A DNA stretch of 47,717 nt, from UHGV virus genome UHGV-0097968; one strand, 5' to 3'. The DNA comes from a virus. Positions within the stretch are counted from its first letter, which is position 1, and each line of letters starts with the position of its first letter. Under the pieces are notes generated by a model. The model was not told the origin of the DNA, did no database searches, and was given only the letters and a program-made list of their open reading frames with translations. This document shows positions 2,795 to 47,717 of the stretch, in pieces. The position numbers and the translations under genes are program-made.

Positions 2795-5007
2795 GCGGTT
2801 TGCTCCTGTGCAGCGGTGAGGGCGGCGAGGCGTTCAGTTTTGATGTCGGTGATACGGCGCAGGCGCGATCCCAGATACGATGAATATTCTTTATCGCCTT
2901 TGGCTTCTGCTGCTTTTCGGTGTACATCCACTTCGCGGGCGATGAGGCCAAATACCTTGTTTACTTCGTTAGTGGTTACCGCGGAGGCCAGCGTATTGGC
3001 AACGTTGATAAGCTTCTCATCCAGTTCCTTACGCAGACGGGTAGCATCTTCCGCATTCTCGCTGGCATTCTTGATATCAAACTCAGCTTTATTCCTCTGG
3101 CGGTATTCCGGATTGTCGTACAGGCCCATGAAAATATCGGCGCTGAATCCGAGAGGGGATAGCGCTTTCTTAACAGCATCCGTCCAGGATTTCTTCGGCG
3201 CTTCGCCGTCGCTTGTTGGTCCGTATTTAGTGTCGTAGATATAAGGTGTGCATCCGTAAGCCTCGGACTCACCGCGCACTCCATTCAATATGTACCAGAC
3301 TCTAACTTTCATGGTGTGGTGCATTTCACATAGGTACCCGCCAACACCGTCTTGAATCAGATCCCATTCTATTTTTTCACCAACCTGTTTTTTGCGAACT
3401 ATCGGTGCGCCTTTATCAAAACGCTCTTCCACCACCTCTACACCCCAGCCAATACCAAACGGCCCAAATTCGCGAGTCGCTTTCATCGCTATATAAGTGC
3501 CGTTGATGGATGTGCCGCCGCCGTCCTGAGAGAAAGCACTGGTGAAGCGCTCATCGGTTTTGAATACGTTCTTCCACAATGCCAGGTTATCTGTGTCGTC
3601 GGAGTCCTTTAACTCCGTTTCGATAGCTGAGATTGCATTCTGCCGCTTGTGCTCTTCGGTATGGATCCGCTCAACCAGCGCGTCAACGTTCTGCACCAGA
3701 TCCTTTACCTGCTCGCTAAGTTTTTCTTGTGGAGGAGTCTCTTCTGCCGGGGTAATAGCTGCAGGTTCCCTCTGTGAGACGGCGTTATTTTCAGGTACGT
3801 CATACACATGGCGAGGCGTGACAAACCGCTCACGCAACTGCTGCAAACTACGTTCTCCAGCATTTGCTGCTTCGCTTTTTTCGCCCTGATTTGAGGGTGT
3901 TTCTGACATCATCCCATCAATTGAGAATCGTCCGCCGCCGTGGTTGGTGACTTTTACATCATCCTTTGGTGCTGCTTCCTTTGGCTTCTCTTCAACAGCA
4001 TTTGCATCACGCTGCCCGTTAGCTTGCAGCCAGTTGTCGATGTGACTGCGCAGGGATTGTGGGAAGTGGTACATGTCTTTTGCGGGGACGCTCTGAATAA
4101 CACCGAATACTGATGCGCGGTCATAGGCAAGGATCTGATCCGTTGTGCGCAGGGCCATTGACCAGCGTTTAAAATCCTCCCGGTCCTGGCTGATTATTTC
4201 GTCTGCCGCTTTCAGGACGCTGGGGGTGATTTTTTCCGGGCCAACGGGTAACAGGGCGCAGGCAATTTCACGATCCAGTGTGGCGTGAGTCTGTTGGTAA
4301 GGACGTGCGGATGCTGTTTCTGGTTTTACCTCCGGCAGCATTTCATCGCGTTTACCGGGATTCTCTACCCATTTTTTTATAAATTTGGAGATAGTCCAAC
4401 TGGTCGGGTTTTGTTCCTGGGTATCGCAACTTGCCAAAATTGCATGTACCAGATTATTCAATCCAGCAATATGCATGTACTCGATGGGCTTACACGCCAC
4501 CATGGCATCAAGAACGATGCGGTTAAACGCGTCAACCTCATCCTCACTGTCAGTATCACTGTTGTCGAGCATCTCCAGGTATTCACGCGTCTGCGCAAGC
4601 AATTCACTGTCGACTTCGTTGGCATCGTGGCTGAACAGCAGGACGGCGGCGAAGCGTTCACGAGCAGGCAGTTTCATCAGGTCGCTAACCTGTGAGATAT
4701 CTGCTGAACTGCAACCTGAATCAACAGGAGTGTTAACTACCCATCTCTCGCCATCAAAACTGTGTTCTGTGGCAAACGTCTCATCAAACTCACCGACGCC
4801 TGGGCGCGGTTGGCCCGGGGCATCTTCCCAGATTTTAGGTTTGAAATAGTTGTCGCCGTGGTCAGGGTAGGTTTCCCACAATTTGCCGATGATGATGTTC
4901 TCGGCAACTTTTTTGTTAGGGGCGTCGATGGCGATGGCCAGCGCCGGGATCGCGCCGTTTTTGAGCGCGCCTTTTTTTGCTTCTAACAAGCCGTTAAAAA
5001 TGGTCAT
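2791..5007 (-). CDS. Large early-region protein (738 aa) with C-terminal region resembling a phage single-strand annealing recombinase (Rad52/Sak/Erf-like); N-terminal/central part acidic and unassigned
   Basis: Long uninterrupted ORF; C-terminal segment ...TREFGPFGIGWGVEV...GYLCEMHHTMKV...KSWTDAVKKALSPLGFSADIF... resembles SSAP cores by motif recollection; start overlaps downstream gene stop. Confidence 0.7.
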   Translation of the reverse strand: MTIFNGLLEAKKGALKNGAIPALAIAIDAPNKKVAENIIIGKLWETYPDHGDNYFKPKIWEDAPGQPRPGVGEFDETFATEHSFDGERWVVNTPVDSGCSSADISQVSDLMKLPARERFAAVLLFSHDANEVDSELLAQTREYLEMLDNSDTDSEDEVDAFNRIVLDAMVACKPIEYMHIAGLNNLVHAILASCDTQEQNPTSWTISKFIKKWVENPGKRDEMLPEVKPETASARPYQQTHATLDREIACALLPVGPEKITPSVLKAADEIISQDREDFKRWSMALRTTDQILAYDRASVFGVIQSVPAKDMYHFPQSLRSHIDNWLQANGQRDANAVEEKPKEAAPKDDVKVTNHGGGRFSIDGMMSETPSNQGEKSEAANAGERSLQQLRERFVTPRHVYDVPENNAVSQREPAAITPAEETPPQEKLSEQVKDLVQNVDALVERIHTEEHKRQNAISAIETELKDSDDTDNLALWKNVFKTDERFTSAFSQDGGGTSINGTYIAMKATREFGPFGIGWGVEVVEERFDKGAPIVRKKQVGEKIEWDLIQDGVGGYLCEMHHTMKVRVWYILNGVRGESEAYGCTPYIYDTKYGPTSDGEAPKKSWTDAVKKALSPLGFSADIFMGLYDNPEYRQRNKAEFDIKNASENAEDATRLRKELDEKLINVANTLASAVTTNEVNKVFGLIAREVDVHRKAAEAKGDKEYSSYLGSRLRRITDIKTERLAALTAAQEQTA

Positions 5008-5358: not shown

Positions 5359-6256
5359 AGCGACTCCTTGGTGGGGTATACTCAGAACCGATCAGCGGTT
5401 CTGTCGTTGGTCTTTCCTCGGTGTAAGGTTGGTCCCTTGCACCATATCCGAATGGTTTGGTCGCCGTTCGGGGTAACTGGCCCGCCTTGTGCGGGTCTTT
5501 TGCCATCTAAAGGGTGCCGGTTACGTTTCCGGCGTCGTTATGTTTCCATTACGACCGTACAGGGCTGGTCAGGCCCGGGCTGGTCTTTCCTGTTTTGAGC
5601 TGGTCAGGCTCATGGTCAACGCTGGTCAGGCGTGGTACTTCCTCCGGTCTTTCCCTGGTGTCATGCTGCGGGTTTGGCCTCTCCTGTTGGGGACTCAGGC
5701 ACAGCGATAAAACCTGGCTGTGTGAAAAAATGGCCCATCGTGCGGACTGGGCAAAGACTAAACACAGCAAATTGATGATGGGCGCCCGGAATCGAACCGG
5801 GTAACGGGCAGGGAGTTCCCGTCAAACACCTGTTCACCACAACCGGGAGCGCACTCCGCCATTTCAAAATTTAACGACAAAGCTCAAAGTTGAGTCGATG
5901 AAGTGCGCTCTCGTGTTGTAGCCAGGACTCTTCCCTGGTGGTCACACCGTATCGCCTTGATGGTGAATCAATCGCTCATACCTGGCTGTGGCTTGCACAT
6001 TCCGGCTACCTGCTATGGAGACAACGCGTTAAGGCTCCGCTTCCATCCAGACCGCTTCGACACATGTGCCATATGCCGGTGAAGTCTTTCCCTCTGTCAT
6101 CGTGTTGGCGCCGACGCGCAAAATTTGGTGCCGTCTTTCCGGCTGTCAGAACGTGTTTCTGAACAACTGCCGCTGGGTAAGCGTTGTTGATGGAATGAAT
6201 ATAACTAAAGGTAATTTTATGCGCAAGGTGTTTTATAACAAAAGTTAGTATTTGGG
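5359..6256 (-). other. Roughly 900-bp apparently non-coding leader of the leftward early operon, containing repeated GCCTGACCAGC and GGAAAGACC motifs and a candidate PL promoter/operator near 6210-6256
   Basis: No convincing ORF on either strand (only short overlapping biased ORFs); three copies of CCTGACCAGC on the transcript-sense strand near 5570-5640; operator-like AACAAAAGTTAGTATTT near 6236-6256 shares sequence with the cI-cro operator region. Confidence 0.45.
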
Positions 6257-6306
6257 GTAAAAATAAAGGCAATGCATTGAAAACATTGCCTTTATTTTAT
6301 TTTTTG
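6257..6306. terminator. Bidirectional rho-independent terminator after the repressor gene
   Basis: 10-bp stem AAAGGCAATG/CATTGCCTTT with 9-nt loop, flanked by A-run on one side and T-run (TTTATTTTATTTTTT) on the other. Confidence 0.6.
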
Positions 6307-6710
6307 GTGGGGGTTAGTTTCTTTCTGGTAACCAGTAACTCTTCAAATAAACGATTAAAGTTTTCAACTTTATCTTCTAATTCAATTAGTTGCTTTTCTT
6401 TTTCTGACTCGGGTAATGAATCAAATAACTCTAACAATCTTTTTTGACGTGAATCCAGCTCTGTTGGTAATTCGTCTACCGGAGTTGGCGCCTGGTCTTC
6501 GTCACCAAAAAGCAGCCATGTGGCAGAACACTTAAGTGCATTGGCCAAAGCCAGCAAGTTCTGACCTTTTGGTTCATTTTGTCCGCTTTCCCATTTAAAA
6601 ACGCTCACACTCGATCTTCCAACCATATCAGCAAGCTGTTGTTGGGTTAGACCAAGCTGTTTGCGTCTTTGAGATAAACGGTCGCTAAGCATCAAATTCT
6701 TCATCCTCAT
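6297..6710 (-). CDS. cI-like repressor, XRE-family HTH only (no peptidase S24 domain)
   Basis: 137-aa ORF with N-terminal HTH (LTQQQLADMVGRSSVSVFKWESGQNEP), divergent from a Cro-like gene; C-terminal part short, acidic and coiled-coil-like. Confidence 0.85.
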   Translation of the reverse strand: MRMKNLMLSDRLSQRRKQLGLTQQQLADMVGRSSVSVFKWESGQNEPKGQNLLALANALKCSATWLLFGDEDQAPTPVDELPTELDSRQKRLLELFDSLPESEKEKQLIELEDKVENFNRLFEELLVTRKKLTPTKK

Positions 6711-6778
6711 AATATAAGTTAACTTGACATAACTTTCGTTAGTATTTATGTTGCTAACAAAAGTTACGTGGAGGGATT
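6711..6778. promoter_or_regulatory. Immunity-region operator/promoter (PR-like for cro; operators)
   Basis: TTGACA at 6724-6729, 17-bp spacer, TATGTT at 6747-6752; perfect palindrome AAGTTAACTT at 6716-6725 overlapping -35; additional AACAAAAGTTA half-site; GGAGGG RBS before cro ATG. Confidence 0.6.
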
Positions 6779-6976
6779 ATGAAAACAGAGACGGTTATTA
6801 GTTTTTTTGGTTCAAAGACAGCCACAGCCAAGGTGCTGGGTATATCTCAAGTGGCGGTTACTCGTTGGGGGGCAACAGTTCCTGAAAAGCGAGCTGCTCG
6901 ACTCGACCATATCACTAACGGAGCACTGAAATATGACCCGACTTTTTACGATGTTCCAAAACATGAAAAAGCTTAG
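6779..6976 (+). CDS. Cro-like small HTH regulator
   Basis: 65-aa ORF, HTH FGSKTATAKVLGISQVAVTRW, divergent from repressor. Confidence 0.75.
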   Translation: MKTETVISFFGSKTATAKVLGISQVAVTRWGATVPEKRAARLDHITNGALKYDPTFYDVPKHEKA

Positions 6977-7035: not shown

Positions 7036-7512
7036 ATGGAAAACCCAGAGGAATTACAAAAAGAGATTTTGACCTGGGCGGCAAGGGCAGGGCAGGAACT
7101 CGTCACGATTGAAATCTGCCGGGCCTGGTTCAGTCAGGGACGCAATGATGAGTTGAGACTACATGAATTTGAGGACGCGGACGGCAATGTGGACTGGAGA
7201 GCCATCAACAACAATCGGCAGAAAATCTTTCGCTGGTTACGTGGCGAGACAACGGCGGCGCGCCGAAAAACTCAGGTGCTGGCCAGTGTGATGAAAGCCG
7301 TGCTACCCGCAGAACGGCGGGCGCGTCTGGAGTCGCCGGGCGATCCCGTTTTGCTGGCAACGCTGGCGGCAAAAGAAGGGGGGGAAGCGATTAACGCTGT
7401 ACATCTCCACTTCGCGCCAGAGTTAACTATTCAGGAAATTGACGAAGCAATAGCGGCGCTGGTAGCGACGCGAGGGGCAGTGATAAGCACTGCGCAAGGC
7501 CACCATGCATGA
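7036..7512 (+). CDS. YdaT-like protein (cII-position regulatory protein)
   Basis: 158 aa; segment IFRWLRGETTAARRKTQVL resembles YdaT-family signature by recollection; follows cro. Confidence 0.5.
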   Translation: MENPEELQKEILTWAARAGQELVTIEICRAWFSQGRNDELRLHEFEDADGNVDWRAINNNRQKIFRWLRGETTAARRKTQVLASVMKAVLPAERRARLESPGDPVLLATLAAKEGGEAINAVHLHFAPELTIQEIDEAIAALVATRGAVISTAQGHHA

Positions 7513-7551
7513 GCGCCTGACCAGCGTTTAACTTATACCGAGGAAAGACCG

Positions 7552-7776
7552 ATGTTAAGACATATTGACCGCATTACCTGGCGTAACGGCTGGCACCTGA
7601 ATGGGCGCCCGGCACATGTTGCAGAGATCCAACCTATTTTTGATGGGCGTATGGCTGCCGCGCTTTCGGTGTGGGAGCAGTATGAATCCAGGAAGGTCGA
7701 GTTGCGCGACAAAGGGCTGAGCAATGCGGACTATGAAGCCGGTTGTCGTCAGATAGCCGAAGCTCTGGAGATCTGA
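7552..7776 (+). CDS. Hypothetical early protein
   Basis: 74-aa ORF preceded by conserved element CCTGACCAGCG...ACCGAGGAAAGACCGATG. Confidence 0.5.
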   Translation: MLRHIDRITWRNGWHLNGRPAHVAEIQPIFDGRMAAALSVWEQYESRKVELRDKGLSNADYEAGCRQIAEALEI

Positions 7777-10231: not shown

Positions 10232-10269
10232 CCACGCCTGACCAGCGTGAAATAACCGAGGAAAGACCA

Positions 10270-10680
10270 ATGACCACCACTCCAGGCAAATTAGAGTACC
10301 CGTCGGACAAAGGACACATAGATGACGGTAAAAACTATCTCGACGTCATTTTGTGGAATATGAACGTCGGGCCACGTGCGCGCACTCGTGCGGTTTTTGT
10401 GCCAAGACCCAAAGCCGGCAATTTTTCAACCCCTGCTCAACCAGCCCGTCAGGCATCCGTAACCGCAGCGCCAGCAGTGAAACGTAAGGGTAAAACGCAC
10501 ATCGGGATCGCGATTCGCAGAAATGGTGAGCGGCAAGTGAAACTCCACGAAACAGCGACAACCTGGTGTGCCTCACCGCATGAAACTTACGACAAGATAA
10601 CCGGGCAGCGAATTGGTGCGCCCGGTCGCTGTCGCCTGCTGCTGAGTTCCATCACTCCGATAGCAAAGAAAGGGACGTGA
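10270..10680 (+). CDS. Hypothetical protein
   Basis: 136-aa ORF preceded by the conserved element ending ACCGAGGAAAGACCAATG. Confidence 0.5.
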   Translation: MTTTPGKLEYPSDKGHIDDGKNYLDVILWNMNVGPRARTRAVFVPRPKAGNFSTPAQPARQASVTAAPAVKRKGKTHIGIAIRRNGERQVKLHETATTWCASPHETYDKITGQRIGAPGRCRLLLSSITPIAKKGT

Positions 10681-23310: not shown

Positions 23311-23582
23311 TGACCCTGCACTCTGTCCTCATCAATGCCAATGCAATTATTTGTCTGATGCTGGCACTACGGTTGATGTTTTTTCAAAAAACAGGCCGCT
23401 ATCGTTTTTTTATCTCACTAACTGCTTACCTGGCGATTCTGTCTGCTGCGTGGATAGCCCTACGAATTTTTTACGGGAAATATACGCAGGTTGATCCCGC
23501 AGAGTTTTTTCTCAACCTCACCATCTGTATTGCTGTCTGGCGGGCACGAGGGAATATTTCAAAAATAACAGGAGACAGGTAA
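23310..23582 (+). CDS. Small membrane protein (second holin/antiholin-like)
   Basis: 90 aa, two hydrophobic helices, overlapping start/stop with neighbours. Confidence 0.55.
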   Translation: MTLHSVLINANAIICLMLALRLMFFQKTGRYRFFISLTAYLAILSAAWIALRIFYGKYTQVDPAEFFLNLTICIAVWRARGNISKITGDR

Positions 23583-24064
23583 TGACCGATCCTAAATGGC
23601 TAATTGAGGCTCGAAAAAACCTCGGCATTCGGGAAATGAAAGGGAAGCAACATGCTGCAGAAATTGTGCAGTACTGGAAAGATATCAAACGCGGCGGCAT
23701 TAAGGATGACGAAACACCGTGGTGCGCTGCTTTCACCGGGGCAATGCTGGAACGTGCGGGTATTCGCTCAACGCGTTTTGAGTCTGCGAATTCTTATCTC
23801 GATTGGGGTAATGAACTGAAGGAACCCGCCTATGGATGCATTGCTATTCTGTCTCGGTCTGGCGGTGGTCACGTTGGCTTTGTTGTCGGGAAAAATGCCG
23901 CCGGGGATTTAATGATTTTGGGTGGTAACCAGGCAGATGAAGTAAATATCAAAGCTTTTTCTCGTTCCCGCATAACAGGCTATCGCTGGCCTGTTGATGT
24001 GCTGGATGTGCCGTCAACCTTGCCGCTGCTGATGGGAGGTGAATTATCAACTTCGGAGCAGTAA
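23582..24064 (+). CDS. Endolysin, Cys/His peptidase type (TIGR02594/CHAP-like)
   Basis: 160 aa; conserved Cys (PWCAAF) and His (GGHVGFV) spacing typical of CHAP/NlpC-P60-like endolysins. Confidence 0.65.
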   Translation: MTDPKWLIEARKNLGIREMKGKQHAAEIVQYWKDIKRGGIKDDETPWCAAFTGAMLERAGIRSTRFESANSYLDWGNELKEPAYGCIAILSRSGGGHVGFVVGKNAAGDLMILGGNQADEVNIKAFSRSRITGYRWPVDVLDVPSTLPLLMGGELSTSEQ

Positions 24065-24066
24065 CC

Positions 24067-24258
24067 ATGAAAAAGTTCTTTCTACTGGCAGCGTTGGTGC
24101 TTGCGGGTTGCTCAAACACGACGTACACGGAAGCAACGCATCCCAACGGCACGACCGTAAAGCACATTTCTATCGCACCGGGTACGAAGAGCACAACCGC
24201 AAGTGGTGGCTGTATCGACTCTACCGGGGCTGCGGCTTCATGCCCATTGGATCAATGA
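24067..24258 (+). CDS. Small lipoprotein (possible o-spanin-like or entry-exclusion lipoprotein)
   Basis: 63 aa; signal peptide with lipobox LAGC; additional Cys residues; follows endolysin. Confidence 0.55.
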   Translation: MKKFFLLAALVLAGCSNTTYTEATHPNGTTVKHISIAPGTKSTTASGGCIDSTGAAASCPLDQ

Positions 24259-24633
24259 GGGTAATTGGCATAGGCAATTTAACCGTATAAGTGCGCCTTC
24301 ACCGGCTTCCTGCAAATAAGTGCATTTCGTAATTTATAAAGTTCTAAGAAGCAAGTCCATAAGCTTAACATTACAGCACAAACGATCTGTTTTTAGTTCT
24401 ATGGGTGTTCTCTTTTTCGGGAATATATTTTAGTAACCAGAATTAAATTCTAAAAGGCCTTGCAACTGCGGGGCTTTTTTATATCCGTATTTCGCTGCGC
24501 ACCGCATGCGCATATCAACCACCGAACCAGACCCTTTGGAATGAGCCGTTGAGGATGTCAGTTAGTGCTGGCGAGCCTCGGTGGGCTGACTTCCTATGCG
24601 GCAACGGTTCATCTCAAAGAGTAGGTACACGCT

Positions 24634-25131
24634 ATGAAATCATTAACCCTCTTCAATCAACCAATCCGCGTCGGGGATGATGGCATGATCTGCCTCACCG
24701 ACATGTGGAAAGCCAGCGGCAAAAGTGACGCTGAATCGCCGTACCACTATCTGCGAAACAAGCAGACCAAAGAGTTCCTTGTCGAGCTGGAGAAAAACCA
24801 CGAATCTGTGGTTTTCACTGCCCGCGGCGTACACGGCGGAACCTATGGCGGGAAGTTTGTTGCTTACGATTATGCGGCTTGGTTAAACCCAGGGTTCAAG
24901 TATGCAGCCTATAAAGTACTCGATGACTACTTCACCGGAGAGCTTCGGCATCGTAATAGCTTAAGTGCGCAGCTCAACATGAAGTGTTATGAGTTTGACC
25001 AGAAGAAAGACATGGCGAGCTTCTGTGGGCAAGGACTCGCGGCATGGCGTTATACAAAGCCTGTGCTGATCGCTGAGATGAACACCTTGGCAAACCAACT
25101 GCAGATTACGCTCCCTGGACTTCCTGGATGA
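24634..25131 (+). CDS. KilA-N domain protein
   Basis: 165 aa; PIRVGDDGMICLTDMWKASGKS...FVAYDYAAWLNPGFKYAAYKVLDDYF resembles KilA-N. Confidence 0.65.
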   Translation: MKSLTLFNQPIRVGDDGMICLTDMWKASGKSDAESPYHYLRNKQTKEFLVELEKNHESVVFTARGVHGGTYGGKFVAYDYAAWLNPGFKYAAYKVLDDYFTGELRHRNSLSAQLNMKCYEFDQKKDMASFCGQGLAAWRYTKPVLIAEMNTLANQLQITLPGLPG

Positions 25132-25370
25132 GTAATCGCGTCATCGAATGCGCCTCCAGAGCGGGGCGTGACTTCTCAGAGTTCATGAAAGGCGAGAAGG
25201 GTATGGAGGACGCGCTGTCCTCGGTGGATCAGTTTGGCGAGCAGATTCGACTCAACGGCTGCGTCAATCATCACTTTGTCAGTTACATGATGCGTAACGC
25301 GATCATGCAGGCATTCATGGACATGGCAAGCGCTGAGAAAAAAGAAGAGCGCCGACGTAAACGAGCGTAA
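25128..25370 (+). CDS. Hypothetical protein
   Basis: 80-aa ORF overlapping upstream stop. Confidence 0.45.
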   Translation: MSNRVIECASRAGRDFSEFMKGEKGMEDALSSVDQFGEQIRLNGCVNHHFVSYMMRNAIMQAFMDMASAEKKEERRRKRA

Positions 25371-25520
25371 GCAAAAGCTGAGTAGTCATTCCAAAGCTCA
25401 TCCCCGGGTGGGCTTGATAATGGATAGTCATCACAGATTTAAAATGTGGCAATGAAGTCTCTTTAATAAGCCAATTCTTAGCATTATTCTGACCTCTCCA
25501 ATTGAAAAGGAGGTTGAGTA

Positions 25521-25712
25521 ATGTCAGATGAAATCCGTCGCTGTAAAATCGTCAGTATGTATGAACAACCCGAGGGAACGTTCATTAAGTTCGCCCCAGT
25601 GAAATTCTATGACGAAGGCAACAACCCTCATGTCGGCGAGCAAGCAATCGTAGAGATGGATAACGGCAAAGTGATTACCGTAAACCCGGGTGAGATTCAC
25701 TTTATTAAATAG
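25521..25712 (+). CDS. Hypothetical small protein
   Basis: 63-aa ORF with AAGGAGG RBS, followed by terminator. Confidence 0.5.
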   Translation: MSDEIRRCKIVSMYEQPEGTFIKFAPVKFYDEGNNPHVGEQAIVEMDNGKVITVNPGEIHFIK

Positions 25713-25732
25713 TGACAAAACTGATTGTGATG

Positions 25733-25756
25733 AAACCCACTGCGGTGGGTTTTTTA
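25733..25756 (+). terminator. Rho-independent terminator
   Basis: Stem ACCCAC/GTGGGT, loop TGCG, T5. Confidence 0.65.
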
Positions 25757-25820
25757 TTGCTATCACCATGGGCAGACCCATCGTAATGGCAAAAGCAGGG
25801 CGAGGTTATCGCCCTGTGTC

Positions 25821-26090
25821 TTAACCGCGTGCCTCACGACCCTCCTCGTCCTCAGGTACACGATATCGCCAGTATTTGTCCGGCCTAACCCAAACAACAT
25901 CCCCGCCGCTATCAACTCTGAACTTATTTATGACTTTTGTTGAAAGTGCTTGGTTGCCGTCTGCATTTTCCTTCAAATGTTGCTCATTACCAACTTTGAC
26001 CAAATAATCAACGACGTCCTGCTGGTATAAGCATCCATCTTTTTGTAGTGCAGATAACATCCAATTTGATACATCTGCAACAGCTAACAC
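25821..26090 (-). CDS. Hypothetical protein (minus-strand moron)
   Basis: 89-aa ORF downstream of the 26105-26323 gene on the same strand. Confidence 0.4.
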   Translation of the reverse strand: MLAVADVSNWMLSALQKDGCLYQQDVVDYLVKVGNEQHLKENADGNQALSTKVINKFRVDSGGDVVWVRPDKYWRYRVPEDEEGREARG

Positions 26091-26104
26091 AGTGGTTGAT
26101 TGGG

Positions 26105-26323
26105 TTATGGCTTTGGGATGAATTTATCTAACGACTCTTCTGGGAAATTACCACTGTCTAATTTCCTTCCTGCAAACCATTGGCAACGGTAGTTACCATT
26201 GAAGGTATCCGATAAGGTAGTAAGTGGTTTTTCAACAGTCATTGCTGGGCCACCTGATTTCAATACGACTAGCTCCCCTTTATTAAATTTTGCAACTGGA
26301 GTTTGTGAAGGTGCTTTAGCCAT
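26105..26323 (-). CDS. DUF2158 (YodC-like) small protein
   Basis: 72 aa; KFNKGELVVLKSGGPAMTV...QWFAG motif; AAGGA RBS. Confidence 0.55.
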   Translation of the reverse strand: MAKAPSQTPVAKFNKGELVVLKSGGPAMTVEKPLTTLSDTFNGNYRCQWFAGRKLDSGNFPEESLDKFIPKP

Positions 26324-26430
26324 TTTATGTCCTTAAAAGTTAGTGATATGACAATGATTAGATGGCGACAATAGGTATAAATTTCAATAATAACAACTTG
26401 ACTTAGCTCACAAAATTTAAAGGAAATCTT

Positions 26431-26600
26431 ATGGCAAAACCGAACTGGGGAGCACTGCAACACCAGTTCCTCGCCGACCATGCCAAAACGGGTATATCAC
26501 CGAAAGAATGGTGTGACGCGTAGGGACTGAGCTACGCAACAGCTCGCCGACGTATAAAAAACAACTGCGCAATGTGCCAAAGAGCTGGTGGCTGATGAAA
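26431..26600 (+). pseudogene. Decayed 5' remnant of a terminase small-subunit-like gene (in-frame TAG plus frameshift)
   Basis: MAKPNWGALQHQFLADHAKTGISPKEWCDA then TAG where intact homologues, as I recall, continue QGL...TARR..IK; reading frame then shifts and terminates. Confidence 0.4.
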
Positions 26601-26661
26601 GAGACGCTTTACTTTAACGAGAGGCCGCCTTTTTGTTTTAAGGCGGCACACATTCAACAGA

Positions 26662-26922
26662 TTAAGGTAACTGATTTGACCATTTTGTTGCGCGCCAGTT
26701 GTTCTGAACCATAATCTTCTGAAGTATCTCATCTGAAGGCTCTGCTTCGCCGCTTAGCCATTCTCTTAAAGTTGAACAATTTAGATAAGAGGAGTTCGCA
26801 CGATAAAAAGATACGATGGCGTCCTCTGATAACGTCTCAGGAAACTTTTTTGGGTCAGCTTCTTTTAATATTACGCTCATTAAGGCTTCAATTTTTTCTC
26901 TGTTCATTTTTTGCGTTCTCAT
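26662..26922 (-). CDS. Hypothetical protein (weak)
   Basis: 86-aa ORF in AT-rich segment between packaging-gene remnant and cos; poor RBS. Confidence 0.3.
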   Translation of the reverse strand: MRTQKMNREKIEALMSVILKEADPKKFPETLSEDAIVSFYRANSSYLNCSTLREWLSGEAEPSDEILQKIMVQNNWRATKWSNQLP

Positions 26923-27197
26923 GGTTGTTGTTTTTCTGTAAGGATATCAATAAGTTCAAGATATATACATATATCGAAAACTTGTTCGGTAGTCTATCGA
27001 TACAGCGCAAAAGGATGGCTCGCTGCCAAAGTGAAAGCTTACGCTGATAATCAGATACACAAAGCTGATGTATGCAAACAAGTACGCCGCGAGGCTACAG
27101 TCGAGTTTGATGAACCTGATGCGAGCCCCCGATTCCTGTCCTGAAAGGGAGATAGCCCACCCTGGTCGCGGGTCCTTTCCGAAATCCAAAACACCGA

Positions 27198-27277
27198 GGG
27201 TCGGTAGACGCGCAAAAACTCGCTCGTTTTTAGTATTTTTTCATTTTGGGTATTTCCGGTTCCGGTGAGGATTTTTA
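27198..27277. other. Candidate cos region (cosN-like GGGTCGGTAGAC followed by TTTCCGGTT-type cosB motifs)
   Basis: Located immediately upstream of Nu1-like terS; resembles my recollection of lambda cosN GGGCGGCGACCT and downstream TTTCCGGTT motifs. Confidence 0.35.
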
Positions 27278-27844
27278 ATGGCAAGTCAGGCTGAGGTCGC
27301 AGCACATTTATTGCTATCAGATCGTCGTCTGCGCGATCTCGCAAAACTTCCGGGAGCTCCAGTCCCCCAAGGACGTGGCGATTGGGACCTTGATGCCTGG
27401 CGCCATTTTTATATTCATTATCTCCGGAGCAATAGACGCGACACAATTGGTACAGACGAACCGGAAGTGGGGGACAATTCTCCCGAAAAAAATCGCGAGC
27501 AGTGGTTGAAAAATGAGGAACGGCAGGAGCGAATCCTGATGGCTCGCGTGAAACGCCGCATTCTTGCTAAACGCTACGCGCCAATTGAATTAATTAGCGT
27601 CGCTGTATCTCGCGTCGCCGTTGAATTACGTACCCGCGTCGAGTCGTGGCCACCACGATTGAAAAAGGTGTGGCCTGAAATGCCGCAGGAGGCGAGCAGT
27701 GTATTACGAGAGGAGCTGGCGATAGCCCTGAATGAACTGGCAGACATACGAGTCGACTTCAGCGATTACGATGTCAGCGATATCGAACGCGATCTCGACA
27801 GGGTTGAATCCCTTGCGCGTGACGATACCGATGACGGGGGTTGA
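27278..27844 (+). CDS. Terminase small subunit (Nu1-like)
   Basis: 188-aa ORF directly upstream of and overlapping the gpA-like large terminase gene. Confidence 0.7.
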   Translation: MASQAEVAAHLLLSDRRLRDLAKLPGAPVPQGRGDWDLDAWRHFYIHYLRSNRRDTIGTDEPEVGDNSPEKNREQWLKNEERQERILMARVKRRILAKRYAPIELISVAVSRVAVELRTRVESWPPRLKKVWPEMPQEASSVLREELAIALNELADIRVDFSDYDVSDIERDLDRVESLARDDTDDGG

Positions 27845-29693
27845 GTGGGCTGATAAATATTTTTATCTCCCTGAGGGCTCCAGCCACATCGCTGGCCACT
27901 GGACGACTCAGCCGGTCCAGGTAGTGATGCTCAATATGATGACTAACGACGCGATAAAAATCGTGTCTGTTCGCAAATCAGCTCGTCTCGGTTATACAAA
28001 AATACTCGTCGCGGCGCTGCTCTATTTCGCTGAGCACAAAAAACGTAGTGCCGTGGTCTATCAGCCTATCGATGACGAATCGGATGGATTTGTCGCCGAC
28101 GAGGTTGACCCCGCTATCGCCGAAATGCCGGTGATTCAGAAAATTTTCCCCGACTGGGATAAAAGCAACGAGCGTAACAATCTCCAGCGTAAAGAAATGA
28201 ACGGCGCGATTATTGATTTTCGCGGCGCGAGTACGCCAGGAAATTTCCGGCGACTAACGAAACAGGTTGTCGAGGGTGACGAAGTTGACGGCTGGCCGCT
28301 GGAAGTTGCCAAAAAAGGCAAAGGCGAGGGCTCGCCCATCGAACTGGCGCTCGTTCGAATTAAAGGGGCAGCGTACCCGAAGGCGATTTTCGGTTCGACA
28401 CCGACAGTCACCGGTAAAAGTCATATCGAAATGTTGGAAGACGCTGCTGATCTGACATTTCGTTTTTACCTGAAGTGTCCGCATTGTAGCGAGGAGCAGA
28501 CCCTAGTATTTGGTTTCGACGGTATCGAATACGGTCTCAAGTGGGATGACAGCCTGCAGACTAACGAGTCGAAATCGTCGTCCGCGTATTACCAGTGCTG
28601 CCACTGCCCGGAGCATTTTTACTATCGCGATCTCGAAAAAATGGAGCTCGGGGGGCGCTGGATAGCCGAGGACTGCACCTGGACCCGAGACGGAATCCAT
28701 TTTTTTGATCATGACGGTGGCGTCGTTCGCGCGCCGAAACACGCGGCGATCGTGATAAACGCCCTGTATTCACTAAACCTCGATGGATGGGGCGAGATTG
28801 TCAGCGAGTGGCTGAAAGCGAAGGGTGACCCACTCAAAGAAAAAACGTTTCATAACACGACGCTCGGCGAACTCTGGAGCGACGTAGCCAGCGAGCAGCT
28901 GGAGCACGATATTCTGGTTAATCGCCGGGAAAAATACGCCAGCCAGGTTCCTGACGGTGTTGTTTATATAACCGGTGGCATCGACTCTCAGACGTCCGGG
29001 CGCTACGAGTGTTACGTATGGGGATGGGGAGCCGAGGAAGAGTGCTGGTTGATTGATAAAACCATCGTCCTCGGTCGCTACGACGAGGAGGACACGCTGC
29101 AGCGCGTCGACGGAGTGATTCGCAAACAATACCGGCGCAGCGACGGGACCACAATCGGCGTCAGTCGCTGGGCGTGGGATACCGGTGGTATAGATGCGCA
29201 GGTCGTTTATAACCGCTCGCTGAAACTCGGTCCGCTGTGGGTCATTCCAATTAAAGGTGCGAGCTCATACGGTCAGCCAGTCGTAAATATGCCGCGTACA
29301 CGTAACGCGAATAAAGTCTATTTGTCGTTAATCGGTACTGATACGGCAAAAGATTTGCTCGCAATGCGCCTGCCGCTGGAACCCGATTCTAAATCGGCGA
29401 CACCAGGTGCGATTCATTTTCCCAACGACGTCGAAATATTCGGCACAACAGAGGCAAAACAGCTCGTTTCTGAAGTTCTGATCCCGAAACTGATTAACGG
29501 TCGCGTCGTTTATCGCTGGGACAACCAGGGCCGGCGAAATGAAGCTCTCGACTGCTGGGTATACGGGCTGGCTGCGCTGCGTATCAGTAAAATTCGTTTC
29601 CAGCTCAATCTCGAGGCGCTCGCTGAGCAACGGAAAAAATCACAAAACAAACTGTCTCTCGAGGAGATGGCGAGAATGCTCGGAGGGAGCTAA
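27732..29693 (+). CDS. Terminase large subunit, lambda gpA family
   Basis: 653 aa with extended similarity to lambda gpA by recollection (VEWAD..YLP, KSARLGYTK, CPHC, IPIKGAS, RRNEALDC); true start may be the ATG at 27831 overlapping the terS stop. Confidence 0.95.
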   Translation: MNWQTYESTSAITMSAISNAISTGLNPLRVTIPMTGVEWADKYFYLPEGSSHIAGHWTTQPVQVVMLNMMTNDAIKIVSVRKSARLGYTKILVAALLYFAEHKKRSAVVYQPIDDESDGFVADEVDPAIAEMPVIQKIFPDWDKSNERNNLQRKEMNGAIIDFRGASTPGNFRRLTKQVVEGDEVDGWPLEVAKKGKGEGSPIELALVRIKGAAYPKAIFGSTPTVTGKSHIEMLEDAADLTFRFYLKCPHCSEEQTLVFGFDGIEYGLKWDDSLQTNESKSSSAYYQCCHCPEHFYYRDLEKMELGGRWIAEDCTWTRDGIHFFDHDGGVVRAPKHAAIVINALYSLNLDGWGEIVSEWLKAKGDPLKEKTFHNTTLGELWSDVASEQLEHDILVNRREKYASQVPDGVVYITGGIDSQTSGRYECYVWGWGAEEECWLIDKTIVLGRYDEEDTLQRVDGVIRKQYRRSDGTTIGVSRWAWDTGGIDAQVVYNRSLKLGPLWVIPIKGASSYGQPVVNMPRTRNANKVYLSLIGTDTAKDLLAMRLPLEPDSKSATPGAIHFPNDVEIFGTTEAKQLVSEVLIPKLINGRVVYRWDNQGRRNEALDCWVYGLAALRISKIRFQLNLEALAEQRKKSQNKLSLEEMARMLGGS

Positions 29694-29926
29694 TGACCGC
29701 GCGCGAGGTTTTAACAGAACGGCTGCTGGAAGCGGAAATCGCTCTGCACAAATTATTAACGGGTAAATCGACCGTGTCGCTGTCTCACGGCGATTCAGCG
29801 GGAAATAACCGGAGCTATCAGTACTCCCAGGCGAGTATTGAACAGCTCCGAACGTACATTATCGAGCTGAAATCACAGCTCGGTCTGAGTACGGGACGCC
29901 GCCGTCCCGTGGGAGTTCGATTATGA
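29693..29926 (+). CDS. Head-tail joining protein, lambda gpW-like
   Basis: 77 aa; LHKLLTGK...YIIELKSQLG...RRRPVG parallels lambda W. Confidence 0.75.
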   Translation: MTAREVLTERLLEAEIALHKLLTGKSTVSLSHGDSAGNNRSYQYSQASIEQLRTYIIELKSQLGLSTGRRRPVGVRL

Positions 29927-31497
29927 CTGCTCCACAGCAGCTGCTCGGGCCTGACGGTAAAACGCCACTACGCCGTTTTGCGGGGTATAACGGCGGCGGT
30001 CCCGGCTTCGGTGGCCAGCTGATTGACTGGAATGCACCACAGCAAAGTGCCGATGCGGCACTGCTGCCTAATTTTTATCGCGGTAACGCGCGAGCAGACG
30101 ATCTCGTTCGCAATAACGGCGTCGCATCGAACGCTGTGCAGCTGCACCAGGATCACATCGTCGGCAATCTGTTTAAGCTGAGTTACCGCCCTAACTGGCG
30201 TTACCTAGGGATATCTCGCGAGGACGCCAGGGCGCTGGCGCGTGACGTTGAGGTCGCGTGGACTGAATACGCCGAGGACCCTCACTGCACGATTGATATC
30301 GAGCGGAAACGGACGTTCACAATGATGATCCGCGAGGGCGTGGCTACTCACGCTTTCAACGGTGAAACCTGCGTACAACCAGTCTGGGAGAGTAGTGCCG
30401 GCAGCGTTTTTCGGACGCGATTCAAAATGGTCTCACCGAAACGGATTCGAAATCCGGGTTACGCAGCTGACACCCAATTTCGCCGCGCCGGTGTTGATAT
30501 CGATAAAAACGGGGCCGCGGTCGGGTATTGGATAGCCGAGGATACCTACCCCCTCGGCGGAGTCGGTAAATGTCGGCGTATCCCAGCACAGCTCAGCAGC
30601 GGCAGACACGCATTCATCCACATATTCGAGCCGCTCGAGGACGGACAGACCCGCGGAGATAACATTTTTTACAGCGTAATGGAGCGGTTGAAAATGCTCG
30701 ATACGCTGCAGCAAACACAGCTGCAGAGCGCCATCGTGAAAGCGATGTACGCCGCCACAATCGAATCAGAGCTCGACAGCCAGCAGGCGTTTGAATATAT
30801 CGCCGGCGCGGGTACTGATATCGACTCGAACCCGCTGAATTCGTTTATTCAGAGTTACGTGACGTACTACAACGGCGCAAATATCAAGCTCGGTGGTGTG
30901 AAAGTTCCCCACCTGCATCCCGGCGACAAACTCAGTTTACAGACCGCTCAGAATGCTGATGCTGGTTTCAGTTCGCTGGAAAAATCACTCCTGCGTTACG
31001 TTGCCGCTGGCGTCGGCGCGTCATATGAGGAACTGAGTCGGGACTACAGCCAGGTCAGTTACTCCAGCGCGCGGGCCAGCGCAAACGTGAGCTGGCGTTT
31101 TTTCATGGGCCGTCGACGTTTTATCGCCGCACGACAGGCGTCACTGATGTTCTGCTGCTGGTTTGAGGAAGCTCTGGCGCGCGGAGTTATCACCCTGCCA
31201 CGCTCAGCGGTCCGGTCGTTTTATGAGGCGCGGAACTCCTGGACGAATGCGCTCTGGATCGGTGCAGGTCGCATGGCCATCGACGGACTGAAAGAGGTTC
31301 AGGAGAGTGCAATGCGTATCACGACTGGCCTCAGCACGTATCAGAACGAACTGGCGCTGCAGGGGCAGGACTACGAGGAGGTCATGGAACAACAGGAATA
31401 CGAAATTCAGCGCCGGCGCGAAATGGGGCTGAGCGAACCATCCTGGTCAGTATCTCACCCCTCAAATACCAACGATAACGGCTGGGGAGGTAACTGA
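29923..31497 (+). CDS. Portal protein, lambda gpB family
   Basis: 524-aa ORF following terL and gpW in lambda order. Confidence 0.9.
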   Translation: MTAPQQLLGPDGKTPLRRFAGYNGGGPGFGGQLIDWNAPQQSADAALLPNFYRGNARADDLVRNNGVASNAVQLHQDHIVGNLFKLSYRPNWRYLGISREDARALARDVEVAWTEYAEDPHCTIDIERKRTFTMMIREGVATHAFNGETCVQPVWESSAGSVFRTRFKMVSPKRIRNPGYAADTQFRRAGVDIDKNGAAVGYWIAEDTYPLGGVGKCRRIPAQLSSGRHAFIHIFEPLEDGQTRGDNIFYSVMERLKMLDTLQQTQLQSAIVKAMYAATIESELDSQQAFEYIAGAGTDIDSNPLNSFIQSYVTYYNGANIKLGGVKVPHLHPGDKLSLQTAQNADAGFSSLEKSLLRYVAAGVGASYEELSRDYSQVSYSSARASANVSWRFFMGRRRFIAARQASLMFCCWFEEALARGVITLPRSAVRSFYEARNSWTNALWIGAGRMAIDGLKEVQESAMRITTGLSTYQNELALQGQDYEEVMEQQEYEIQRRREMGLSEPSWSVSHPSNTNDNGWGGN

Positions 31498-32807
31498 TGC
31501 CGTGGAACAATTTTCCGCACCTTGCCGCCCGGGCGTTCAATCAACCGCTTTTGCTGGAGCCCGCCTACGCGCGGGTATTTTTTTCGGCACTGAGCGACCG
31601 GTTCGGTACCGGGCGACTGATTGATACAGCGTCCGGAGAGGTAATGAGCAGTGACGAAATGAACGCGCTCGCGATGGGGTGGGACAGCACAGAGCGAACA
31701 CGCCAGAAATCGTACCGCGTGGAGCGTGGTATAGCTGTTCTGCCGGTTACCGGGACACTGGTTCATAAATTGGGTTATATCAATCCGGTTAGCGGTATGA
31801 GCGGTTACGACGGAATCGTAAAACGCCTGCAGCAGGCGATTTCTGATCCCGATGTTAAGGGGATTTTGCTGGATATTGACTCCCCAGGTGGTGAGGTTGC
31901 CGGCGCGTTTGATACTGCTGATTTAATCGCCCGGGCGCGAGAGCAAAAACCAGTCTGGGCGCTGGCCAGTGATACAGCCTGCAGCGCCGCCTATTTGCTG
32001 GCGTCAGCGTGTTCGCGCCGGCTGATAACGCAGACCGGCACGGTTGGTTCAATCGGCGTCCTGATGGCTCACCGCTGCGTCGAAAAAGCGCTGGAGATTG
32101 CCGGCGTTGACGTGACGCTGATTTACGCCGGTGCGCACAAGGTCGACGGGAACCCGTATTCCCAATTGCCCGACGACGTTCGCGACGAATTCCAGCTGAG
32201 TATTAACTGCACACGCGAGCAGTTCGCGCAAAAAGTCTCGGATTATACCGGGCTGAAAAAATCCAGGGTGCTGGCCACAGAGGCCGCAGTATTTATCGGC
32301 GCGGACGCGATTAAATCTGGTCTCGCTGATCAACTCGTTAATTACGCGGACGCTATCGCAGTGATGGCCGACGCACTGAAACCAAAAATGGAGCGATTTA
32401 TGCCAGGTACAACAGAAACCACGGCGGAGACCACGACCACAGAACAAACCGCGGCTACGACTACGGTCGCGCCGGTTGAGTCCAACGCGGAGCAGATTCG
32501 CGCGGACGCCGCATCGAGCGAACTGGCACGCGTGATGGCCATCATCAACTGTCCCGAAGCTGTTGGGCGCGAGGCGCAGGCAAAAGCGCTCGCTGGCGTC
32601 CCCGGGATGACGGTCGGGCAGGCGCAGACGGTCCTCGCGGCAGCACCGCAAACAGCGCAGGCGCGGACAGAAACGGCGCTCGATACACTCATGAGCACTG
32701 AATCACCGGAAACTATTCAGGATGCCGGCAGCACCACGGCAACAGGAACAGCCGCAAACGTCTCGATGCTGGTTGCTGCAGGGCGTTCAATTTTAGGGGA
32801 TGAATAA
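31497..32807 (+). CDS. Prohead protease/scaffold (lambda gpC-Nu3-like, S49 peptidase)
   Basis: 436 aa; N-terminal ClpP/S49-like region (GILLDIDSPGGEV...ASDTACSAAYLLASA), Ala/Thr-rich C-terminal scaffold-like tail. Confidence 0.85.
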   Translation: MPWNNFPHLAARAFNQPLLLEPAYARVFFSALSDRFGTGRLIDTASGEVMSSDEMNALAMGWDSTERTRQKSYRVERGIAVLPVTGTLVHKLGYINPVSGMSGYDGIVKRLQQAISDPDVKGILLDIDSPGGEVAGAFDTADLIARAREQKPVWALASDTACSAAYLLASACSRRLITQTGTVGSIGVLMAHRCVEKALEIAGVDVTLIYAGAHKVDGNPYSQLPDDVRDEFQLSINCTREQFAQKVSDYTGLKKSRVLATEAAVFIGADAIKSGLADQLVNYADAIAVMADALKPKMERFMPGTTETTAETTTTEQTAATTTVAPVESNAEQIRADAASSELARVMAIINCPEAVGREAQAKALAGVPGMTVGQAQTVLAAAPQTAQARTETALDTLMSTESPETIQDAGSTTATGTAANVSMLVAAGRSILGDE

Positions 32808-47292: not shown

Positions 47293-47717
47293 ATGAAAAC
47301 GGGACCGTTAAACGAAAGTGAGTTGGAATGGCTGGACGATATTCTGACCAAATACAACACTGACCACGCCATCCTTGATGTGGCGGAGCTGGACGGTTTA
47401 TTGACGGCGGTGTTGAGTTCTCCGCAAGAGATTGAACCGGAACAGTGGCTGGTTGCCGTGTGGGGTGGGGCTGACTATGTGCCGCGCTGGGCGTCAGAGA
47501 AAGAGATGACGCGCTTTATGAATCTGGCTTTTCAACATATGGCCGATACCGCAGAGCGTCTGAACGAATTCCCGGAGCAGTTTGAGCCGTTATTCGGCTT
47601 GCGAGAAGTTGATGGCAGCGAGCTGACGATTGTTGAGGAGTGGTGCTTTGGCTATATGCGGGGCGTGGCACTTTCTGACTGGTCAACGTTGCCCGATTCG
47701 TTAAAACCAGCGCTGGA
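47293..47717 (+). CDS. yecA: YecA-like protein (UPF0149 family), host gene, 3'-truncated by window end
   Basis: ORF begins MKTGPLNESELEWLDDILTKYNTDHAILDV with AAGGAAAA RBS; runs off the window; known neighbour of leuZ in E. coli by recollection. Confidence 0.75.
   Translation, partial: MKTGPLNESELEWLDDILTKYNTDHAILDVAELDGLLTAVLSSPQEIEPEQWLVAVWGGADYVPRWASEKEMTRFMNLAFQHMADTAERLNEFPEQFEPLFGLREVDGSELTIVEEWCFGYMRGVALSDWSTLPDSLKPAL

Follow-up and report, generated by a model that had tools for sequence, protein, structure and literature searches.

A conserved structured RNA without database annotation in the non-coding leader of a temperate phage early operon

The put RNA of phage HK022 is about 70 nt long, folds into two stem-loops and is present as a copy in each early operon; it binds the beta-prime zinc-binding domain of RNA polymerase, and suppresses pausing and termination without protein factors. 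The leaders of rRNA operons use boxA/Nus antitermination, and they have RNase III stems around structured RNAs as well as spacer tRNAs. The putL and putR elements of HK022 are RNA-only processive antiterminators (PMC9378689).

The locus described here lies in a stretch of viral DNA of 47,717 nucleotides (UHGV-0097968; hereafter the window), in which positions 5359-6256 separate a candidate leftward early promoter, PL, from the first leftward gene. This gap contains a conserved structured RNA, element X, whose setting resembles that of put: the phage is a lambdoid phage without N, the element is on the sense strand soon after an early promoter, terminators lie downstream (promoter and terminator both being predictions), and no phage protein partner is in sight. 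In contrast to put, X is ~163 nt long with five helices and a pseudoknot, is also carried by P1-like and epsilon15-like phages, and occurs once per locus rather than in both early operons (143 loci and the 47.7-kb window). A covariance model of X, run with filters off against positions 23500-32000 of HK022, gave a best score of 4.9 bits (E about 2), and homology of X to HK022 put was rejected on the lack of a model match in the immunity region. The original prediction, that the gap holds a structured RNA or cis-acting element in place of N and its nut site, as put does, was thus upheld for the structured RNA, which is covarying, PL-proximal and on the sense strand, but not for put homology. 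The absence of any relation to put in sequence or structure, and the single copy against putL plus putR, can be noted against an antitermination role.

The window begins with genes for tRNA-Gly, tRNA-Cys and tRNA-Leu, followed by the prophage; the source of the gap is a temperate phage integrated beside leuZ. In a related E. coli genome, the leftward side consists of integrase, DUF4224, Gp157, a 738-aa protein, a 106-aa protein and an unannotated gap of ~950 bp, beyond which lie the HTH repressor, cro, a YdaT/CII-like gene, replication genes and dnaB. In the window the first leftward gene after the gap has its ATG at 5358, and the first leftward products are phrog_2479 and then an exonuclease. 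The gap was predicted to be non-coding, and this was borne out: the ORFs in 5359-6256 are all short (the longest in a mechanical ORF list is 96 aa), the five longest gave no Pfam match above cut-off, no ORF is conserved, and alignments of the relatives' gap sequences showed indels whose lengths are not multiples of three. The gap region was found in 533 of 5,426 complete E. coli genomes. An intact annotated gene at this place in a homologous prophage, the proposed sign of a pseudogene, was seen neither in the RefSeq/PGAP annotation of the related genome inspected nor, insertion-bearing relatives excepted, in the 20 matches listed of the 533. Among 10 early proteins scanned, which are part of the early gene set, there was no match to an N- or Q-like family. 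We conclude that 5359-6256 corresponds to the 5' untranslated region of the leftward early (PL) transcript, in which RNA modules follow one another, and that it is not a dead gene; there is little doubt in our view that it is a genuine multi-module non-coding leader with a new conserved RNA. The features of the immunity region and of the promoter-proximal part of the leader are as follows.

6779-6976, plus strand: cro (ORF list and domain scan)
6297-6710, minus strand: HTH repressor gene, just upstream of PL
6259-6304, bidirectional: predicted terminator after the repressor gene and upstream of PL, a perfect 15-bp inverted repeat with A/T runs on its flanks
6214-6247, minus strand: predicted PL promoter, with -35 TTGTTA at 6241-6236 and -10 TAAAAT at 6219-6214 (promoter scan)
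6236-6247: operator-like palindrome TAACAAAAGTTA, overlapping PL (palindrome count)
6082-6207, minus strand: promoter-proximal leader with small hairpins (fold z = -1.87)
about 6142-6131, minus strand: GAAAGA-loop hairpin CCG[GAAAGA]CGG in the promoter-proximal leader
about 6094-6081, minus strand: hairpin GAGG[GAAAGA]CUUC, loop GAAAGA, in the promoter-proximal leader

Palindromes of the form TAAC-N4-GTTA occur four times in the window, against 0.59 expected, and two of them are at PR (6730-6741 and 6755-6766), the latter being identical in sequence to the PL copy. The overlap of TAACAAAAGTTA with the promoter found by the scan, together with the recurrence of the palindrome at PR, makes a repressor-controlled leftward promoter credible. 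Positions 6082-6207 correspond to an insertion hotspot in relatives, and SE11-type relatives carry there an insert of ~500 bp with a 74-aa ORF.

When the region was compared with phage genomes by blastn, only a core of ~170 nt was common to very different phages; this X core was found in SPN1S and Tyrion (epsilon15-like), in SJ46 and D6 (P1-like) and in Klebsiella phages, every match falling in unannotated DNA. The parts of X are listed below.

5919-6081, minus strand: element X, conserved structured RNA of ~163 nt, five helices and a pseudoknot (covariation)
6078-6058, minus strand: helix H1, 9 bp with a GCA loop
within X, minus strand: helix H2, with a tip of variable length (70-sequence alignment)
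6010-5990, minus strand: 21-mer GGUAGCCGGAAUGUGCAAGCC, identical in every collected locus, an invariance that is by construction as the loci were gathered by the exact 21-mer, divergent members being missed
5971-5957, minus strand: helix H3, closing hairpin UUGA[UUCACCA]UCAA (alignment)
5948-5945, minus strand: GGUG, forming the pseudoknot with CACC of the H3 loop (alignment)
5938-5922, minus strand: helix H5, CCAGG[GAAGAGU]CCUGG (window sequence; the loop is given as GAAGAGA for the alignment)

A check of structure and covariation across homologous phages, which the original prediction had proposed, was carried out on 70 X sequences with mutual identity below 90%. In the helices 97.7% of the cells were paired and 13 of the 31 pairs changed on both sides; compensatory cells numbered 123 as compared with 34.7 in shuffles, and none of 500 shuffles equalled 123. 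When the 3' partners were slid by one to three columns as a control, pairing went down to 28-51%. Pairing with compensatory changes held across four phage lineages. H1 appeared as A-U in 39 sequences and as G-C in 27, and a long-range pairing in its place, the choice of RNAalifold, was rejected because the local H1 covaries. The approximately 40 invariant positions are concentrated in the junctions and the pseudoknot, and covariation of the pseudoknot itself was seen in only two related sequences. Thermodynamically, X of the window was not significantly more stable than shuffles (z = +0.46), so that the case for its structure is entirely a comparative one.

The strand of the RNA was addressed with the same alignment. 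With the minus strand taken as the RNA, 97.7% of the helix cells pair. For the plus strand the figure is 87.2%, each of the 227 G·U cells turning there into a C·A mismatch. This indicates that the X RNA is the minus strand, the sense of the PL transcript. A plus-strand reading, in which boxA-like UGCUCUCA is followed by a boxB-like hairpin, and for which G·U pairs at two loci spoke, was rejected on this difference in pairing, and also on the orientation of the promoters and tRNAs, which in all cases follows the minus strand.

The plus-strand form of the 21-mer, GGCTTGCACATTCCGGCTACC (5990-6010), is unique in the window; it was found exactly in at least 120 IMG/VR contigs and in 19 representative genomes, 18 of which are Enterobacteriaceae, of ten genera. 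Among 5,426 complete E. coli genomes, 669 (about 12%) carry X, at 477 chromosomal and 206 plasmid places, and no annotated feature lay under it in the 40 matches listed of these 669 genomes. It is better conserved than its flanks in E. coli: 448 of 471 full-length copies were at least 99% identical, whereas a region of 1,021 nt was so conserved in only 61 of 533. Phage P1 carries X at 71021-71198, within a trnI-ban gap of 286 bp that is empty in the 535-feature annotation. The covariance model gave 124 bits on the window and no second copy in 47.7 kb, and nhmmer found one copy per locus in all 143 loci. Rfam 15 gave no relevant match to X at E <= 10 (5840-6260), and no family reached its gathering score over X in ten other loci. 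A full-text literature search with the core sequences returned nothing, nor was there a sign of X in accessible parts of papers on prophage Pas sRNAs, or in papers on Stx-phage regulatory regions and P1 transcriptomics. X is an RNA family without database annotation that is widespread across unrelated temperate phages.

In lambdoid, Stx/cdt and epsilon15-like phages, X stands first or nearly first in early operons under repressor control, and in several lambdoid phages without N it takes the PL-proximal position. At 52 loci X follows, on the same strand and at a distance of 90-700 nt, the end of a CI-type repressor gene; these repressors belong to two S24-peptidase/HTH families (43 loci) and to the HTH type of the window (9 loci). 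Phage cdtI has the order cI, terminator, near-consensus promoter (TTGACA-16-CATAAT) and, about 50 nt later, X; a Stx2a phage has the same layout, with X ahead of a gene-free leader of ~780 nt. In P1-like phages X is inside the ban operon, ~12 nt after tRNA-Ile2 (trnI) and before ban, and in epsilon15-like phages it heads a short leftward unit made up mostly of RNA genes, with tRNA-Arg(UCU), between the terminase and portal genes. The P1-like position in mid-operon and the epsilon15-like RNA unit show no obvious need for antitermination. A co-oriented tRNA lies within about 15-230 nt of X in 39 of the 143 loci, and a tRNA-like module elsewhere; adjoining tRNAs are always on the strand of X, with tRNA-Met/Ile2(CAU) upstream in 27 loci and tRNA-Arg(UCU) downstream in 12. 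Across 105 distinct loci, the gene-free distance from X to the first large ORF has a median of 446 nt, and at least 54 have a strong terminator-like hairpin in between. In phages of the L042 type, the operon must cross a convergent inserted gene and the terminator of that gene. Stand-alone X genes were considered for three loci (L014, L042, L110) and rejected, X being followed there by a convergent inserted gene.

Three further modules directly follow X on the leader.

5837-5921, minus strand: long-range helix, 5' strand at 5921-5900 and 3' strand at 5857-5837 (inverted repeat, MFE fold)
5777-5854, minus strand: degenerate tRNA-like element, with a canonical T-arm CCCGG-UUCGAUU-CCGGG at 5801-5785
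5724-5777, minus strand: RprA 3'-end-like module, with seed UUGCUGUGUUUAGUCUUUGCC, terminator hairpin 5752-5733 and U-tract (RprA alignment)

The 5' strand of the long helix is the 22 nt directly after H5; the helix is interrupted, and its 3' strand ends in GUUGUGG at the 5' edge of the tRNA-like element. Over 123 loci the median duplex energy was -26.9 kcal/mol, compared with -16.6 kcal/mol in the control, with many compensatory variants; the same helix is found in most non-P1 loci, always ending in GUUGUGG at the 5' edge of the tRNA or tRNA-like module. It is possible that it serves as a processing stem of the RNase III type. The tRNA-like element was called by ARAGORN (78 nt) only at 90% or less of the default threshold, with mismatches in the acceptor stem, and at default thresholds neither ARAGORN nor Rfam called a tRNA at 5777-5854; the equivalent slot in epsilon15-like relatives holds real tRNA-Arg(UCU) genes. 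A tmRNA, a permuted tRNA or an attP remnant, suggested by GCGCACUCCGCCA together with the T-arm, was rejected: ARAGORN found no tmRNA, and GCGCACUCCGCCA is otherwise explained, as the motif is the 3' strand of the conserved long-range helix.

On 5777-5724, the Rfam RprA model (RF00034) scored 35.7 bits (E = 0.071), short of the full-length gathering score of 70, and the 3' end of E. coli K-12 RprA is identical to the module at 45 of 54 positions, with the seed UGCUGUGUxUAGUCUUUGCC and the loop of the terminator among them. RprA itself is naturally processed to an active form that consists of its last 47 nt (PMC9262595); judged by its sequence, the window module has both the 3' seed and the predicted Rho-independent terminator of this form. 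It differs from RprA in having neither the 5' hairpin nor the rpoS-pairing region, and in being embedded in an operon leader rather than forming a stand-alone gene. Rfam called no RprA in ten other X loci; the seed, as GCUGUGU(G/U)UAGUC, recurs in 44 of 143 loci at 200-900 nt beyond X, and the terminator hairpins there are unrelated. Terminator prediction gave no convincing minus-strand site in the leftward operon other than 5752-5724, and the promoter scan found no promoter-like site past it until 1133; on the rightward side the first strong terminator comes at 13.5 kb. The 5752-5724 terminator may simply leak, a possibility that bears against antitermination.

As a whole, the leader is reminiscent of those of rRNA operons, in that a long untranslated transcript of structured RNAs and tRNAs has its leader element first and long-range stems bracketing its modules. 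It differs from them in that X leaders have no consistent boxA; some relatives have UGCUCUUU in the 3' strand of the stem, where the window has GUGCGCUC. Small RNAs and tRNAs that share the transcript of a repressor-controlled or early phage operon and are freed from it by processing, as is proposed for this leader, are also known from the dicB operon of the Qin prophage (DicF) and from the T4 tRNA cluster, with its stable RNAs; none is similar to X in sequence, and X is much larger and far more widely conserved than DicF.

The promoter-distal half of the leader (5722-5359) varies between relatives through gain and loss of repeats. Its features, and two related ones in the rightward operon, are given here.

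5644-5658, minus strand: CCAGG[GAAAGA]CCGG, a copy of GGAAAGACC as hairpin loop (read from the sequence)
5633-5619, minus strand: hairpin with loop CUGACCA, stem ACGC/GCGU
5612-5596, minus strand: hairpin with loop CUGACCA, stem UGAGC/GCUCA
5576-5562, minus strand: hairpin with loop CUGACCA, stem GGGC/GCCC
5405-5420, minus strand: CGAGGAAAGACCAACG, relic of a translation initiation region, in which the ATG of relatives is ACG
7510-7530 (7510-7554), plus strand: CUGACCA-loop hairpin in the rightward operon, then GAGGAAAGACCGATG and the next gene start at 7552
10233-10249 (10233-10272), plus strand: CUGACCA-loop hairpin after dnaB, then GAGGAAAGACCAATG and the next gene start at 10270

Attention had been drawn to short repeats in the gap; the repeats are real, but the strongest feature is X at 5919-6081. 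Three evenly spaced copies of GCCTGACCAGC had been described on the leftward sense strand. There are indeed three exact copies, and since the plus strand reads GCTGGTCAGGC in all of them (5564-5574, 5599-5609 and 5621-5631), GCCTGACCAGC is in the sense of the leftward transcript; the spacing is not even, at 35 and 22 nt. These GCCTGACCAGC/GCCUGACCAGC repeats are the tops of the three leader hairpins, whose loops are identical and whose stems are different. The window contains 12 hairpins of the CUGACCA type, compared with 2.0 in shuffles. The two listed for the rightward operon are intergenic, in sense orientation, and followed by GAGGAAAGACC(A/G)ATG of the next gene. Hairpins of this type are restricted to this phage group.

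The several copies of GGAAAGACC noted on the same strand were also confirmed, exact copies starting at 5654, 5590 and 5417 (minus strand). The shorter GGAAAGAC is present ten times in the window, against 1.4 expected, and all ten lie in the two early operons and read in the direction of transcription; followed by G or T (GGAAAGAC(G/T)), it is found on the minus strand at 6140 and 6091. Four copies directly precede real start codons (7552, 10270, 5007 and about 1832), from which we take GGAAAGACC to be the standard ribosome-binding sequence of the phage; five copies in the leader have no start codon, and several show GAAAGA as a hairpin loop. At the 5417 copy, BUCT708-like relatives have ATG and a 37-aa ORF; in other E. 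coli relatives the codon is ACG and the frame is interrupted, so that the 37-aa ORF is not a conserved one. As this is the sole candidate frame, with ACG for ATG and broken in close relatives, the suggestion of a small N-like peptide was not supported. That the region might be a decayed gene proved wrong for the whole of it and right for two parts, the start-less initiation region at 5420-5405 and the degenerate tRNA at 5854-5777. A role of the GGAAAGACC repeats as a CsrA sponge or as targets of the RprA seed was set aside as speculative, complementarity being only 5-6 bp and the motif being an ordinary ribosome-binding sequence.

We tentatively favour a model in which X renders early transcription resistant to termination, doing a job like that of put, or of the rRNA-operon leader, with an unrelated fold. 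X would fold as it is transcribed and act in cis on the RNA polymerase that is elongating it, or on the factors of that polymerase, so that transcription continues past the 5752-5724 terminator, across untranslated RNA of about 850 nt, and on into exonuclease, xis and int. Processing would be directed by the long stem together with the tRNA-like element, freeing the RprA-like piece of ~50 nt as an sRNA of the Hfq type. Antitermination is favoured by the lone leftward terminator standing between X and the first gene with no later promoter before 1133, and by the lack of an N- or Q-like match in the 10 early proteins together with terminator-like hairpins at no fewer than 54 of 105 loci; the absence of a strong rightward terminator until 13.5 kb fits the presence of X on the left side only. 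Also counted in its favour are the structure and strand of X, its place behind repressor genes at 52 loci and in the cdtI and Stx2a layouts, the crossing of a convergent gene with its terminator in L042-type phages, and the high identity of X among E. coli copies, read as a sign of selection. A broader proposal, which we put forward with some reserve and on sequence grounds, is that X may represent a class of phage RNA not described before, with a conserved host machine, most likely RNA polymerase, as its direct target; it would be a second RNA-only antiterminator, unrelated to the first in structure, and would have spread horizontally among lambdoid, Stx/cdt, epsilon15-like and P1-like temperate phages of Enterobacteriaceae as a cassette paired with tRNA or tRNA-like genes and a 3' copy of RprA.

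The main rival, only somewhat less probable, is that X is a stable early RNA acting in trans, the leader being a mobile RNA gene cassette (X, tRNA or tRNA-like element, RprA-like sRNA) from which the pieces are excised by RNase III at the long stem and by RNase P/E at the tRNA-like element, X then binding a conserved host component such as a protein of defence or RNA metabolism. The linkage to co-oriented tRNAs in 39 of 143 loci, and the P1 site 12 nt after trnI and the epsilon15-like unit, both awkward for antitermination alone, are explained at least equally well by this reading; the stem that joins the 3' flank of X to the tRNA leader is conserved and covarying, the invariant single-stranded junctions resemble a binding surface, and in some phages X starts within about 10 nt of a promoter picked out by eye, where the promoter scan called none. 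However, no X was found with its own terminator directly after it, those present belonging to convergent inserted genes. In addition, CRISPRi block of P1 trnI-ban gave no plaque defect (PMC10695390), so that X is accessory there, and any function in trans dispensable, in the laboratory. The abundance of invariant positions in junctions and pseudoknot is typical of aptamers and ribozymes, and tRNAs adjoin X, so that X might instead be a riboswitch-like aptamer for a small molecule or tRNA that sets read-through, or a self-cleaving ribozyme that trims tRNA precursors; GCACAU of H1 could pair alternatively with AUGUGC of the 21-mer. We consider this improbable: Rfam gave no riboswitch or ribozyme match at E <= 10, no expression platform follows directly, the terminator being at least 150 nt off with other modules between, and the local H1 covaries, locus L084 retaining the hairpin and losing the alternative pairing.

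The remaining readings, like the sensor or ribozyme, are graded as less likely than those above. The leader shares with lambda and P22 nut and N a place between PL and the first leftward gene, and hairpins with identical loops in both early operons (three in the PL leader, two in PR gaps), all in sense orientation like nutL and nutR; the loop CUGACCA also resembles GCGCUGACAAAGCGC, which we take to be the P22 boxB sequence. Regulation might on these grounds reside not in X but in the CUGACCA hairpins, bound like boxB by an RNA-binding antiterminator or a translational regulator of the phage, or in a leader peptide. This is quite improbable, as boxA is absent beside the hairpins, no N-like protein was found among the 10 early proteins scanned, and the loops are of 7 nt, in contrast to the GNRA-like pentaloops; moreover, the three leader hairpins sit downstream of the terminator that would need suppression, the peptide frame has lost its ATG and is broken in relatives, and the hairpins are limited to this phage group whereas X is widespread. 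Some decay is visible in the start-less initiation region and the degenerate tRNA, GCTGGTCAGGC has 6 of the 8 bases of Chi (plus strand), and folded single-stranded DNA also tolerates G·T pairs; a decayed protein gene, or an element acting as DNA (an origin, a single-strand initiation site or Chi-like repeats), is nevertheless very improbable given the lack of a conserved ORF, the indels out of triplet, and the 97.7% pairing of X with compensatory changes in four lineages. X is in addition better conserved than its flanks, and it shares its orientation with promoters, tRNAs and a terminator, which is what one expects of a transcript.

To our knowledge, many lambdoid prophages, among them Shiga-toxin and cdt phages, have no N gene, and among such phages HK022 alone has an explanation for how early transcription passes terminators. 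X is a candidate answer for such N-less phages: it is unannotated, has about 40 invariant positions, and is sited at that very place. About 12% of complete E. coli genomes hold in X an RNA gene that is called by no pipeline, a point on which annotation is corrected. By sequence comparison, the active 3' portion of RprA, a host sRNA, also has an apparent copy in phages, which suggests that the phage may interfere with the host Hfq regulon at the moment of induction. X is a concrete object, and its function is directly testable.

[quoted passage not shown]

6236-6247, 6730-6741 and 6755-6766: TAAC-N4-GTTA palindrome, common to PL and PR.

In some relatives, PL is separated from X, the ~163-nt structured RNA of the PL leader, by an insertion of 500-650 bp (E. 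coli SE11, 1390-1614 plus flanks, and locus L147). The inserted DNA holds an acidic ORF of 74 aa (124 aa in TUM13936) together with an apparent antisense ORF, and is a gene inserted within the leader. X was also located in phage P1:

P1 (AF234172), within 71009-71294: X, in the unannotated 286-bp gap between trnI and ban.

The P1 copy is 87.6% identical to that of SJ46, in which the trnI-ban gap carries a mini-ORF of 14 codons that overlaps the start of ban as UAAUG.

Downstream of X, a module of ~90-150 nt with the pattern GUGGUGAA.GC.CAGGCUGAUG.GC ... GCCGGAGAUC.GCACCGGCCACCACA recurs in loci L009, L111, L040, L044 and L123, filling the slot held by tRNA-Arg in other phages. It is closed by an acceptor-like stem, and the L009 version presents an anticodon-like CUUUUAA loop; the module has the appearance of a second family of tRNA-like RNAs, as yet uncharacterised. 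In SPN1S, isolated T-arm-like pieces (CUGGUUCAAUUCCAG and GGUCAGUUCGAUUCGGAC; minus strand, locus ~2890-3010) lie in an insert within the long-range helix that joins the 3' flank of X to the 5' edge of the tRNA or tRNA-like module; the pieces resemble fragments of tRNAs set within the cassette. One X-bearing viral contig, L044, also contains the Rfam sRNA STnc100 (82 bits) and a cluster of four tRNAs (Gly, Arg, Thr, Ile) at 686-887, ~10 kb away from X.

The promoter-distal segment of the leader, 5359-5722, contains eight copies of GACCA on the transcript (minus) strand and none on the opposite strand, compared with 0.8 in shuffles. The transcript here is U-poor (13%) and slightly enriched in C; the segment could be a Rho-loading region or an array for protein binding. 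The CUGACCA loop shared by three hairpins of the leader was found again between genes of the rightward operon:

7510-7530, plus strand: CUGACCA-loop hairpin.
10233-10249, plus strand: CUGACCA-loop hairpin.

Each is followed after ~10 nt by GAGGAAAGACC(A/G)ATG, and this arrangement may represent a conserved linker, made up of a hairpin and a ribosome-binding site, that joins gene cassettes, or else a protein-binding operator. Close to the right end of the window, remote from the early region, a TATT[CTGACCA]AATA hairpin (47340-47354, plus strand) precedes a second CTGACCA.

The leader also carries a stretch resembling the host sRNA RprA:

5724-5777, minus strand: copy of the RprA 3' seed and terminator, 45/54 identical to E. 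coli rprA, terminator loop included.

The RprA-like seed lies 200-900 nt downstream of X in L007, L009, L040, L042 and other loci. Copies of the 3' seed and terminator of RprA are thus present in phages; the seed GCUGUGUGUAGUCUUGGC is kept in the other phages before unrelated terminators, the pattern expected of a base-pairing sRNA.
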